A stretch of DNA of 64,000 bases from Oceanispirochaeta sp. (lineage in GTDB: Bacteria > Spirochaetota > Spirochaetia > DSM-2461). The DNA is taken from NCBI GenBank assembly GCA_963663385.2, contig CAXXXD010000002.1, forward strand, positions 1,152,001 through 1,216,000, written 5' to 3'. This document shows positions 50,691 to 53,823 of this stretch, piece by piece. Within the stretch, counting starts at the first letter, position 1, and each line of letters starts with the position of its first letter. A program made the translations under genes and the position numbers. The notes beneath the pieces were generated by a model. The model was not told the DNA's origin, did no database searches, and was given only the letters and a program-made list of their open reading frames with translations.

Positions 50691-51819
50691 AAATCTCTTT
50701 AATTGTATCTCCTTCAACCAGACTTGCTGAAAGAACAATTCGTTCAATTTCCTGATCACCCTCTATAACACGATTGAGTTTTTCCATGGCCAGAATGCCC
50801 ATTTCGAATTCATTCTGTTTCAGATGAGTGTAGGCGGATTCCCCTATATACTCCCAGGGCGCATCAAAGCACAACAGGGAAACATCCCCGGGAATCTGAA
50901 GCCCGATTTCCTTTAATACATGGGACGCCAATATTGCCAGGTGATATTCGCAGGCAAAAATCGCTGTTATTCCTCTTTCTGCTGTTAGGTGATCAAGGAG
51001 AAGATTTTTATCTGTTTCAATATTTCCCGGTGTATTTCTTCCCGGCATTGTACTGACAAAATCCAGCAGGAACAGGGAGTCGTCAATTGGCAGATTGTAA
51101 TCCAGAATTGCCGCCTTGACTCCATCAAGCCGATCCTCCAATGCCGAAGTGTTTCGAACCGGAGGAGATAAGTAGAGAATCCGACGGTGTCCTTTATCAA
51201 GGAGATAAGAAGCTCCTTTATATGAGGCTTCCTTATGGTCTGTACCGATAAAGGAAGATTTCAATCCCCTCAGTTCCAAGTCGACAAGAACAAAGGGGAA
51301 GCCCTTCATGGATAATTCCATTATGGCAGGGTTAAAGAACTCATCGTGTTGAGGCTGTATAATAAGGCCCGAAGCCCCAAGGCTGATCAGGTCCCTGATA
51401 GCCTTTTCTTCAAGATCCTGTTTTCCTTTGGTCAGCTTCATGACCAGATAGTAGCCCAGTTTTTCGGCTTCCTTTTCAATGCCTTCCATAATTTTAATCC
51501 CGAAACTGGAGGATATATCGGGCAGTATAAAACCGATAAATTTCTGTTTCTGCCTGAATCTTCTACTGGTGCTCTGAAGGGGGAGGGGATGGCTGCCGGA
51601 AGATCCGGAATAGGAAACAATAGTCCCTTTCCCTCTTATCCGGGTTAAATACCCCTCTTCCACCAGCAGTTCCATAGCTTTACGAACAGTTACTCTGCTC
51701 ACTTCGAACTGCTGGGTAAGCTCCATTTCGGTTTCCACAGTAGATCCATACGTCAGTTCACCGCTTTGTATTCTACTTAAGAGATGATTATAAAGTTTCA
51801 AGTATTTCGGCTCTTCCAT
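50689..51819 (-). CDS. GntR-HTH/LacI-type sensor transcriptional regulator (AraR-like)
   Basis: VSRVTVRKAM...GKGTIV HTH, then periplasmic-binding-protein-like domain (IPGDVSLLCFD). Confidence 0.9.
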   Translation of the reverse strand: MEEPKYLKLYNHLLSRIQSGELTYGSTVETEMELTQQFEVSRVTVRKAMELLVEEGYLTRIRGKGTIVSYSGSSGSHPLPLQSTSRRFRQKQKFIGFILPDISSSFGIKIMEGIEKEAEKLGYYLVMKLTKGKQDLEEKAIRDLISLGASGLIIQPQHDEFFNPAIMELSMKGFPFVLVDLELRGLKSSFIGTDHKEASYKGASYLLDKGHRRILYLSPPVRNTSALEDRLDGVKAAILDYNLPIDDSLFLLDFVSTMPGRNTPGNIETDKNLLLDHLTAERGITAIFACEYHLAILASHVLKEIGLQIPGDVSLLCFDAPWEYIGESAYTHLKQNEFEMGILAMEKLNRVIEGDQEIERIVLSASLVEGDTIKEI

Positions 51820-51834
51820 AAGACATTTCCTTAT

Positions 51835-51850
51835 AATGTATCTTACAATT
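51835..51850. promoter_or_regulatory. Candidate autoregulatory operator
   Basis: AATGTATCTTACAATT just upstream of the regulator start. Confidence 0.6.
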
Positions 51851-52015
51851 TATATTAAATGTATCATCCGCTGTATTAGTTTTCAAGCAGTATACGGATT
51901 TTCCATATTTACCAAATCTGAATATAAGTTTTAAATACCTGTAAGAATCCACCTGAATATAAATAACGATATAAAAAGCAGCTCCGGAAGGCAGGAGGAA
52001 TGATAAAAAGTCTTC

Positions 52016-52200
52016 ATAGGCTTGTGGATTGATACAATGTTCTAAACATCGTTTAGAACAGCCAGGTTACTGTTCGCCATTTTTACTGGTCTCCGAGACC
52101 GTACAGGAGAATGAAGAGCCGTGACCGAAACATTCAATGGTCTTCGAGACCGGATAGGAGAATGGAATCAATTCACCGTACAGGCGCTGTTTTAGGCAAT
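52016..52200 (+). ncRNA. Putative bridge/seek RNA in the left non-coding end (boundaries approximate)
   Basis: 10-bp hairpin at 52038-60; two homologous modules CATT..GGTCT(C/T)CGAGACC..AGGAGAATG (52078-113, 52131-164) containing target-like and donor-like segments. Confidence 0.65.
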
Positions 52201-52212
52201 AGGAGCGAAGGT

Positions 52213-53325
52213 ATGAAGATGAGTATCGGAGTGGATCTGCACAAATCCCAGTTAACAGTCTGTTTCCTGAGTGATGATAGAAGCATTTGTGAATCAGGAA
52301 TGTATCCGACCTCTGAGGACGGTTACAGAGCATTTCTTGAGAAAGCAGTGTCCTATACAGAAGAGGGCCTTGATGTTAGGGCTGCAGTGGAATCAACAGG
52401 AAATGCCCGGTTCTTCCGTAACAAGCTATTGCTAGCAGGGATTGAGGTGGTGGTTGTGAATACACTGAAATTCAAAGTTGTAAATGAATCAGTGAAAAAG
52501 ACGGATAAGCATGATGCCAGAACTCTAGCAGAGTTCTTGGAAAAAGATATGCTTCCCGAATCACAGCTTTGTTCTCAGGAGAGTGAGGATATCCGTAGAG
52601 TTCTTAAATCCAGAACTATCCTTGTTAAATCAGTCGTATCTTTGAAGAATCAGGTTCACGGACTGCTTCTAGGGTATGGAATTGAAACAAAAAGAGCTGC
52701 GCTGCAGAGTAAAAAAGAAAGGCAGCGCATCCTCATCGGTCTCGTGGACCATAGGAGTTTCGGAAGCGCTGCCAAAGCGATAGAACCGCTGCTTTCTACG
52801 ATAGATCAGGTTTCGAACCAGGTCAAGCAGTTAGAGAAAGTCCTGCTGGAACTTGTAAAGGAAGATGAGGATGTACAGTTATTGCAGACGATCCCGGGAG
52901 TCGGATTGATAACGGCATCGACTATTAGGGCCTATACGGATGATATCAAGCGGTACGCCAGTGCCAAGAAGTATTCGGCTTATGCCGGTCTTGTACCATG
53001 GGTGCAGAACTCCAATGAGACGATTCATCATGGGCATATAACAAAGAGAGGGGCTGTAGAACTGAGAACGGCATTTGTTCAGTGTGTTATGGGAATGGTT
53101 AGAACTCGGAAAACGACTGGCAATTACCGTATCATGACGAAGTACAGAGCGATGAAGAAGAACAAGGGCAGCGGCACGAGTATTATCGCCTCTGCAAGAA
53201 AGATGAGTACGGTAGTGTACTCCATATTGAAAACCCGTGAACCCTTTGATCCGTTGAAGATGGTTCCGGATGATAAGTACTTGAAGATGCAGGCGGCTGC
53301 ATTCAATGCCGTAAAAACTGGGTAA
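52213..53325 (+). CDS. IS110-family DEDD recombinase/transposase
   Basis: GVDLH, VEST, KTDKHDA (DEDD); IPGVG, YAGLVP..QNS (catalytic Ser region), GHITKRG; AGGAG RBS at 52201. Confidence 0.95.
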   Translation: MKMSIGVDLHKSQLTVCFLSDDRSICESGMYPTSEDGYRAFLEKAVSYTEEGLDVRAAVESTGNARFFRNKLLLAGIEVVVVNTLKFKVVNESVKKTDKHDARTLAEFLEKDMLPESQLCSQESEDIRRVLKSRTILVKSVVSLKNQVHGLLLGYGIETKRAALQSKKERQRILIGLVDHRSFGSAAKAIEPLLSTIDQVSNQVKQLEKVLLELVKEDEDVQLLQTIPGVGLITASTIRAYTDDIKRYASAKKYSAYAGLVPWVQNSNETIHHGHITKRGAVELRTAFVQCVMGMVRTRKTTGNYRIMTKYRAMKKNKGSGTSIIASARKMSTVVYSILKTREPFDPLKMVPDDKYLKMQAAAFNAVKTG

Positions 53326-53385
53326 TCCGGTTCAATTGTAAGCTTGTTAATAGGCTTATGATTGACTTTTTATAGGAGATAAAAA

Positions 53386-53823
53386 ATGGTTTTAAAATGG
53401 TCATACGATCTGAATCAGATAGACTGGAACGAACTGAAGGAACTCTACCGAGTCGCCCCCCTCAGTACAAAAACTGAGGAAAAACTTAAAATCACTTTCA
53501 AAAACAGCATGTTTAAATGCTTTGCCTACGATGGGGACAAACTGATTGCTGCGGGAAGAGCCCTGGCTGACGGGGCATACTGTTCCTATATTTGCGATAT
53601 AGGAGTACATCCCGATTATCAGGGACGGGGCATCGGCAGAAAAACAGTACAGAATCTGATGGATCAGTCCAGAGGGCATAAAAAGATTCTCCTCTATGCC
53701 AATCCGGGAAAAGAGGGGTTCTATGCAAAGCTCGGATTTAAAAAAATGAATACCGCAATGGCTCTTTTTGAAAACCAGGAGGAGATGATTGTTAAAGGAA
53801 TCCTGTCGGGAGAACAGGAATAG
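53386..53823 (+). CDS. GNAT-family N-acetyltransferase
   Basis: VHPDYQGRGIG, FYAKLGF. Confidence 0.92.
   Translation: MVLKWSYDLNQIDWNELKELYRVAPLSTKTEEKLKITFKNSMFKCFAYDGDKLIAAGRALADGAYCSYICDIGVHPDYQGRGIGRKTVQNLMDQSRGHKKILLYANPGKEGFYAKLGFKKMNTAMALFENQEEMIVKGILSGEQE

Follow-up and report, generated by a model that had tools for sequence, protein, structure and literature searches.

An IS110-family insertion sequence of Oceanispirochaeta sp. with a predicted bridge RNA whose target loop matches translation-initiation regions

The 64,000-nucleotide (nt) stretch of the Oceanispirochaeta sp. genome analysed here (contig CAXXXD010000002.1, positions 1,152,001 to 1,216,000 of the forward strand; below, the window, in whose own numbering all coordinates of the element are given) carries a 1381-bp insertion sequence (IS) of the IS110 family, which lies between a host Shine-Dalgarno (SD) sequence and the spacer and start codon of a GNAT acetyltransferase gene. 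Taking its sequence together with those of its other copies, its homologues and an empty allele, we consider it about 85% probable that this is an active and recently amplified element, guided by a predicted bridge RNA (seekRNA) the target loop of which is hard-wired to translation-initiation regions.

Ten copies and an empty allele define the element and its target sites

Ten copies of the element are present in its own genome (5.3 Mb, 4 contigs), eight of them identical to the copy in the window and two with one base change. In all ten the element starts with GAATGATAAAAAG after an AGGAG flank and ends with ...TTGACTTTTTATAGGAG; for the window copy the left junction reads GGCAGGAG followed by GAATGA, and the right junction TATAGGAG followed by ATAAAAAATG. 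An initial annotation of the window, made from its letters, had proposed an IS110-family element programmed to insert at ribosome-binding sites (RBSs), and had suggested that other copies be examined for nCAGGAG just upstream of start codons. Their left flanks carry AGGAG in 10/10, CAGGAG in 9/10, ACAGGAG in 8/10 and the family consensus TACAGGAG in 6/10 cases, and in the right flank of every copy an ATG stands 6, 7 or 8 nt past AGGAG. Each of these ATGs opens an open reading frame (ORF) of 98-689 amino acids (aa), and all ten ORFs run in the direction of the transposase gene.

The unoccupied site was also recovered. Among the public sequencing runs, which were read as assembled contigs, run X6 yielded a contig of 13,946 nt in which position 51992 is joined straight to 53374 and exactly 1381 nt are skipped; the five letters AGGAG fit either side of the join, and the uninterrupted GGCAGGAG-ATAAAAAATG stands at the GNAT gene. 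This supplies the empty allele that the initial annotation had proposed to look for, while a DNA search for one with the GNAT gene in 40 relatives gave matches in the element's own genome only. Because the ten same-genome copies and the empty-allele contig agree, the boundaries of the element are fixed, with an ambiguity confined to the shared AGGAG (under the IS1111 convention the element spans 51996-53376). In run X2 the read depth is 411 over the element against 42.8 over its flanks, which fits about ten copies.

The occupied sites were compared with the genome's own background of 1734 AGGAG-N5-9-ATG sites, of which 28.7% have C at -6 (counted upstream from the junction) and 9.8% have AC at -7/-6. 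Occupied sites have C at -6 in 9/10 and AC in 8/10 cases (binomial P about 1e-4 and 3e-7, respectively), and the element therefore picks a sub-class of ribosome-binding sites rather than any such site.

The assignment to the IS110 family, which the initial annotation had placed at 51990..53390, is borne out by Pfam, NCBIfam and IS621 matches of the transposase, and every string that it had quoted is present at its coordinates, including CAGGAGA, the match to the target, at 52104-52110 and CATTTTTACT at 52078-52087. The protein has an N-terminal RuvC-like DEDD domain (Pfam PF01548, DEDD_Tnp_IS110, 8.7e-21, covering 1-153 of 155) and a C-terminal Tnp domain (Pfam PF02371, Transposase_20, 4.6e-19), scores 228 bits against a cut-off of 140 with NCBIfam NF033542 (transpos_IS110, 'IS110 family RNA-guided transposase'), and aligns with the IS621 chain 8wt6_A at an E of 9.2e-16. 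The E, D and D of its DEDD residues align with those of IS621 (vEStG, ktDkhD), the first D (GVDLH) being placed by eye, and the Ser of VQNS aligns with the Ser of IS621 RRYES on an assumed offset of the PDB chain numbering. Four features that characterize the family were found: a DEDD domain, a Tnp domain with its catalytic serine, a predicted two-loop RNA that covaries with flanks and ends, and, from the empty allele, an insertion that duplicates no target letters and takes place at a short core common to target and donor.

The predicted target loop varies with the host flanks

Two modules had been recognised by the initial annotation in the noncoding region 5' of the transposase gene, module A as target-binding and module B as donor-binding, and both assignments find support in the homologues. 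The 3' strand of module A, UACAGGAG, matches the left flank and shifts along with it in relatives. Guide and flank were compared in 29 elements from different genomes, among which the guide base at -6 varies (A22, T4, G2, C1). Agreement with the left flank is 28/29 at -6, 19/27 at -7 and 8/26 at -8, and matches summed over -6 to -9 amount to 60/108, against 38.9 ± 3.5 when shuffled, with 0/10000 shuffles as high. Individual families follow the same rule: in a 79%-identical element of a Spirochaetia metagenome-assembled genome (MAG), whose guide is UUUAGGAG, 15/15 copies sit at AGGAG and 13/15 have T at -6, and in the Marispirochaeta family, where the guide is UUAAGGAG, 6/6 left flanks read TA at -7/-6. 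One homologue, L061, departs from the G that all others have at -4, with A in its guide and in its flank alike.

The other strand of module A, CAUUUUUACU, had been read as close to the complement of spacer plus ATG. This pairing receives moderate support from the present data; its register is not fixed. Compared with the 8-mer derived from the guide, with an offset of 0-3 allowed, the ten own sites match at 7, 7, 7, 7, 6, 6, 6, 6, 5 and 5 positions. Across 21 families, the variable pentamer of the guide scores 47.1 against the five bases before the ATG, versus 36.3 ± 3.6 in shuffles, of which 5/5000 are as high. Because the 8-mer scores and this ATG-anchored signal hold while registers anchored at the junction stay weak, the right half would be read loosely, probably anchored at the ATG with a bulge, a proposal to which we give about even odds.

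The predicted donor loop varies with the element ends

In module B the 3' strand, AUAGGAG, equals the right end of the element; it is invariant in 27/27 aligned elements, and the right end ATAGGAG is itself conserved in homologues. The 5' pentamer covaries with the left end, being a perfect complement of the first five nucleotides of the element in 23/29 cases against 11.8 ± 1.7 in shuffles. End and guide change together in the pairs GAATG/CAUUC, GCACG/CGUGC, GCATG/CAUGC and GTATG/CAUAC. The AAUG that follows AGGAG in the target loop, which resembles GAATG minus one G, was considered as a handshake guide and rejected, as elements with GCACG ends keep AAUG.

A conserved left-end fold carries both loops

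The guide strands lie within a structure of helices (Table 1), five of which (P1, P2, P3, P4 and P6) were tested on an alignment of 27 homologous left ends. With this structure 85.4% of cells are paired; shuffles give 79.5 ± 0.6, and sliding the partners gives no more than 47.1%. Double-sided changes occur in 21/42 of its pairs. The target-arm helices are paired at 96.3% (helix 4) and 90.7% (helix 5), with compensatory changes in both, and in helix 6 (P6) 12/27 sequences carry GC/AU swaps. P3, P4 and P6 were independently recovered by RNAalifold, and the 215-nt left end of the window copy folds at -65.2 kcal/mol (z = -3.0), with 1/200 shuffles as good. Covariation thus shows the predicted RNA of the left end to fold into a multiloop closed by P1, from which a 5' hairpin, the target arm and the donor hairpin emerge.

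A covariance model, recommended by the initial annotation and built here from the alignment of 27 left ends, finds the 10 copies and nothing else in the element's own genome. Further matches occur in 6/60 other related genomes, a patchy spread like that of a mobile element, and at the left end of the homologue L066, whose transposase is 37% identical. An Rfam scan of 51800-53600 gave no match at E up to 1.

Right after P1 stands a further hairpin, ACAG-GCG-CTGT followed by TTTT (52180-52195), and ACAGG..CTGT is kept in many homologues. The guide RNA may have its 3' end here, or the hairpin may serve as an attenuator before the transposase gene.

Homologues in distant genomes sit at the same class of site

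In total 76 homologous loci were fetched, from records labelled Spirochaetia, Desulfobacterales, Gracilibacteria, WWE3, Dehalococcoidales, Dysgonamonadaceae, Treponema, Leptospira, Lentisphaeria and Clostridia; these record labels serve as taxonomy here, and MAG binning may misassign some of the small contigs. Right flanks could be pooled for 51 elements of 23 families (own family included), and in 49 of them an ATG follows after a spacer of 3-9 nt past AGGAG. On a Lentisphaeria chromosome, where the transposases are 33% identical, 9/11 copies have a common left end with (A/G)GAG before it, and an ATG lies 5-9 nt past the right-end ATAGGAG in 10/11. Because these 33%-identical copies also sit at SD-ATG, RBS targeting is old in the lineage. 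The AG/CT core, the restored SD and the RBS programming put forward by the initial annotation accordingly agree with 10/10 own copies, 15/15 copies of the 79%-identical relative and 49/51 pooled flanks.

The nearest annotated plasmid relative is on pSpe of Thiospirochaeta perfilievii strain P, with a transposase 74.9% identical, and is inserted after TAAAGGAG, 5' of an unannotated small ORF. Other matches in the plasmid collection (tblastn) are below 34% identity and carry generic 'IS110 family transposase' labels, ISLin1 being about 30% identical. In the pSpe locus (L100, 1828-1950) the rebuilt SD leads into the small ORF, which is rich in G, P, S and K, and the next annotated gene begins about 180 nt farther on.

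Evidence against RNA guidance and alternative explanations

Several observations weigh against a target choice made by the predicted RNA. In the left half, agreement with the guide is poor at -8, and AGGAG does not vary in the target, in the donor or in either loop, L061 with its A at -4 being the sole exception, so that pairing of AGGAG cannot be demonstrated by covariation. In the donor loop, 6 of the 12 elements with a left pentamer other than GAATG are imperfectly matched by their guide, and because guide and end are inherited together the covariation there represents about four independent events. For the right half, single-position signals of the guide are about 1.5-2 standard deviations, and registers anchored at the junction are weak (429, 747 and 187 of 5000 shuffles as high). 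A paired core implies a spacer of 5 nt; sites mostly have 6 (29/51), and 0/10 own sites have 5. Guide and spacer composition could moreover both track host G+C content, and the conserved CAU and AAUG, which the minimum-free-energy fold pairs with each other, could have a structural role. Finally, a terminator-like hairpin at 53332-53365, just 5' of the rebuilt SD, could limit read-through into the displaced gene; it is weak, with 15 pairs of which 3 are G-C, and is followed by the T-run of the repeat.

The alternative that survives best holds that the RNA reads the left half only (xACAGGAG), and that the A-rich spacer and the ATG reflect purifying selection against insertions within genes, the survivors being those in 5' untranslated regions with a rebuilt SD. 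The left half is indeed far better conserved than the right, the ATG spacing ranges from 3 to 9 nt, and covariation anchored at the junction is non-significant in two of the three registers. We nevertheless regard this explanation as unlikely. An ATG follows at 5-9 nt in only 170 of the 1462 occurrences of ACAGGAG in the genome, against 8/8 ACAGGAG-type insertions, and even among free sites with at least 5/6 A/T after the motif only 46/281 have such an ATG. Scores of at least 6 on the guide-derived 8-mer are reached by 43/1454 (3%) of free ACAGGAG sites and by 23 of the 170 free SD-ATG sites, versus 8/10 of those occupied. The ATG-anchored covariation described above is rarely matched by shuffles, and there has been little time for selection to act because the copies are near-identical.

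A further alternative, which we consider very improbable, is that AGGAG and the subterminal repeats are recognised directly by the transposase protein, the leader modules being decoy ribosome-binding sites or regulatory sequences instead of guides. In its favour, neither module varies in AGGAG or in the AAUG after it, unlike freely programmable guides, and the 10-bp inverted repeats at the ends are possible protein-binding sites. Against it, the variable guide positions track the flanks and the left-end pentamer, the fold is kept with compensatory changes across 27 elements, and the IS110 family is RNA-guided wherever tested in the published work available to us.

Proposed mechanism

If the element is guided to translation-initiation regions by its predicted bridge RNA, its cycle may be pictured as follows. 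In an excised circle the right end would abut the left and so assemble a candidate promoter, TTGACT-17 nt-TAAAAA with an upstream TG, that would exist in the excised form only and would drive both the left-end RNA and the transposase gene. The RNA, predicted to take up the P1-closed fold supported by covariation, would direct strand exchange at the AG/CT core and place the element between ...AGG and AG... with no duplication, a precise insertion of the kind seen in the empty allele.

In every case the element lies in a 5' untranslated region (UTR), in the orientation of the gene behind it. After insertion, its expression would therefore have to come from an upstream host promoter, and host read-through could transcribe the guide RNA, the transposase gene and the displaced gene. 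The initial annotation had further suggested that the right end rebuilds the RBS. Because the right end consists of ATAGG plus the core AG, the displaced gene keeps AGGAG at exactly its old spacing, as holds for all copies and homologues that were examined; we infer from this arrangement that the gene remains translated.

Relation to IS621, IS1111 and IS900

As far as the accessible text of the two IS621 reports goes (PMC11208160, PMC11208158), the element resembles IS621 and the IS110 group in its DEDD RuvC-like and Tnp domains, in having its RNA in the left end 5' of the transposase gene, in two loops each with two guide strands around an inner hairpin, in a 2-nt core common to target and donor, and in the lack of a target duplication. 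IS621 has a promoter split across the circle junction, a promoter of the excised form also being reported for ISEc11/ISEc21 in the same accessible literature, and a by-eye reading gives the same layout here. IS621 carries its sense guide in the 5' strand of each loop and has CT as the core along the transposase strand (PMC11208160, PMC11208158). Here the guide order is the reverse, the complement of the top strand coming first, and the transposase strand has AG as the core, so that CT is read on the opposite strand. Subterminal repeats of 10 bp replace those of 2-3 bp, and the donor guides lie in the P1-closed multiloop rather than in a simple internal loop. Similarity between the two proteins is mainly in the C-terminal domain.

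The features that set the element apart from IS621 are those described for IS1111-type elements, for which the available parts of the source give subterminal repeats of 7-17 bp, a 7-bp left and a 3-bp right extension, and guides with the top-strand complement first (PMC11187229). Here the subterminal repeats have 10 bp, the extensions are AGGAATG/AGG with the core counted as part of the left end, and the guide at 52078-52087 precedes that at 52102-52109; donor nucleotides in a multiloop are likewise reported for many IS1111 orthologues (Durrant 2024, PMC11208160, in its accessible text). Unlike in IS1111 elements, where a long noncoding region and the RNA lie 3' of the transposase gene (PMC11187229), the RNA lies 5' of the gene, the noncoding lengths being 215 nt 5' versus 53 nt 3'. 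Rare IS1111-like exceptions to the downstream RNA, such as ISMtsp17, are on record (Siddiquee 2024, PMC11187229, likewise in the part available). Judged by the sequence of its ends, its guide order and the position of its predicted RNA, the element is a hybrid of the IS110 and IS1111 layouts. Of the guide-loop model in the initial annotation, the two loops and the core have thus stood, while the guide order and ends turn out to be of the IS1111 type and not of the IS621 type.

RBS targeting by an IS110-family element is already known, because IS900 of Mycobacterium avium subsp. paratuberculosis, reportedly studied by Doran in 1997, does the same. Read on the opposite strand, its target motif CATGNNNNNNTCTCCTT gives an SD, a 6-nt spacer and a start codon, and by the available account it rarely interrupts coding sequence (Conde 2021, PMC8141618). 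Comparing motif and orientation, the host signals in IS900 face the strand opposite the transposase gene (hed ORF), whereas here they are co-oriented with it, and the present element differs further in restoring the SD by its right end. No RNA-level explanation of IS900 targeting was found in the literature searched, and the bridge RNA and seekRNA literature searched holds no statement of an RNA programmed for a Shine-Dalgarno sequence, the supplementary target-motif tables of Durrant 2024 lying outside that search.

Feature map and further observations

The coordinates of the element, its predicted RNA and its junctions are collected in Table 1.

Table 1. Features of the element and of its insertion site, in window coordinates
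Feature	Coordinates	Strand	Basis or remark
Left target half, host Shine-Dalgarno GGCAGGAG	51990..51997	+	Family consensus TACAGGAG; final AG is the shared core
IS110-family IS element	51998..53378	+	1381 bp; 10 copies with 0-1 single-nucleotide polymorphism, and empty-allele contig
Left terminal extension GAATG (right-donor pentamer)	51998..52002	+	With core AG gives the 7-bp extension AGGAATG
Left subterminal inverted repeat ATAAAAAGTC	52003..52012	+	Inverted-repeat analysis, 10 nt, 100% complementary
Proposed -10 TAAAAA	52004-52009	+	TG precedes at 52001-52002; by-eye promoter reading
Bridge-RNA-like structured region	52024..52176	+	Closing stem P1: 52024-52033 with 52167-52176
5' stem-loop P2	52038..52060	+	Covariation test and inverted-repeat analysis
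Target-binding arm (predicted)	52065..52126	+	Outer stem P3: 52065-52075 with 52116-52126; inner hairpin P4 52087-52102
Target-loop 5' guide (predicted) CAUUUUUACU	52078..52087	+	Complement of top-strand AG+TAAAA+ATG
Target-arm hairpin GGTCTCCGAGACC	52088-52100	+	String quoted in the initial annotation, present here
Target-loop 3' guide (predicted) UACAGGAG	52102..52109	+	Equals top strand of left flank plus core; would pair with the bottom strand
Donor-loop 5' guide (predicted) CAUUC	52131..52135	+	Complement of left-end GAATG
Donor-loop inner hairpin P6, GGTCTTCGAGACC	52139..52151	+	Helix 6 paired at 95.7%
Donor-loop 3' guide (predicted) AUAGGAG	52154..52160	+	Equals right end plus core
Transposase gene	52213..53325	+	370 aa; only ORF of the element; Pfam, NCBIfam and IS621 matches
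Proposed -35 TTGACT	53362..53367	+	Kept in homologues; 17 nt from TAAAAA once the ends abut
Right subterminal inverted repeat GACTTTTTAT	53364..53373	+	Pairs perfectly with 52003-52012 over 10 nt
Right terminal AGGAG (3-bp extension AGG and core AG)	53374..53378	+	Supplies the rebuilt Shine-Dalgarno
Right target half: spacer ATAAAAA and ATG at 53386, then GNAT acetyltransferase gene (145 aa)	53379..53823	+	

A mini-ORF at the left end (ATG at 52000, 10 codons) was considered and rejected, since GCACG-type ends lack the ATG and it is not conserved. The transposase gene's own RBS (AATAGGAG, 7 nt, ATG; 52198-52215) has the same form as the targets and the right end of the element, and departs from the target guide at -6. 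Inside the gene, at 52738-52757, GGTCTCGTGGACC followed by ATAGGAG mimics the hairpin and guide of the donor loop. This hairpin is kept in distant homologues by compensatory changes (GGTC/GACC, GTGC/GCAC, GTTC/GAAC), and the adjoining ATAGGAG is retained in 6/22 of the coding sequences examined. A third hairpin bound by the transposase, or else a regulatory site, may lie here.

Among the relatives, L066, which lies on the same contig as the homologue L033, combines its 37%-identical transposase with a left-end RNA scoring 98.8 bits to the model and the same right end, TTGACTTTTTATAGGAG; its RNA and ends seem either more conserved than the protein or swapped between lineages. Truncated relatives (L093 at about 1500-1700, L094, L092/L065 and L071) break exactly at one of the four AGGAG copies, of which one stands at the host junction, one in the DNA of each loop and one at the right end. 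The AAGGAG/TTAGGAG of the target loop runs straight into the spacer and start ATG of a host gene in L093 and L094, a fusion at AGGAGAATG unites the two modules in L092/L065, and L071 has a host SD attached to the target-loop tail. Such truncations could be deletions between short direct repeats or the products of guide-matched 'half-site' recombination. L039 (2317-2390) carries two right ends in tandem (...GACTTTTTATAGGAG again after 29 nt); as the rebuilt right junction itself resembles a target, re-insertion or a partial duplication there is possible.

Significance

The homologues raise the wider prospect, to which we give somewhat less than an even chance, of a deep bridge-RNA lineage with transposases down to 33% identical and records labelled from several phyla, in which the target loop has stayed fixed on SD, spacer and AUG and IS1111-type ends and guide order are joined to an IS110-type upstream RNA. 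If true, the lineage would use a target available in almost any host. Landing in the 5' UTR, its elements could have their RNA and transposase gene driven by host promoters, and with the SD restored by their own end the harm done would be small. Pairing between the conserved CAU and the start codon would take place in a flexible register with a bulge, and RBS targeting of the IS900 type would be a mirror-image solution of the same logic.

Bridge RNAs are commonly described as freely programmable. Here a clade would have kept one class of target over a long divergence, a functional signal found 5' of a large share of bacterial genes. The element would therefore offer a natural case for studying the guide tolerance of a variable half-site, an insertion made nearly neutral by rebuilding what it splits, and the borrowing of host transcription by a mobile element, and a cultured carrier, Thiospirochaeta perfilievii strain P with its plasmid pSpe, makes experiments feasible. 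It would also add to the family a layout that stands between those of the IS110 and IS1111 groups, and offer a testable RNA-level explanation for the long-known RBS preference of IS900-type elements.

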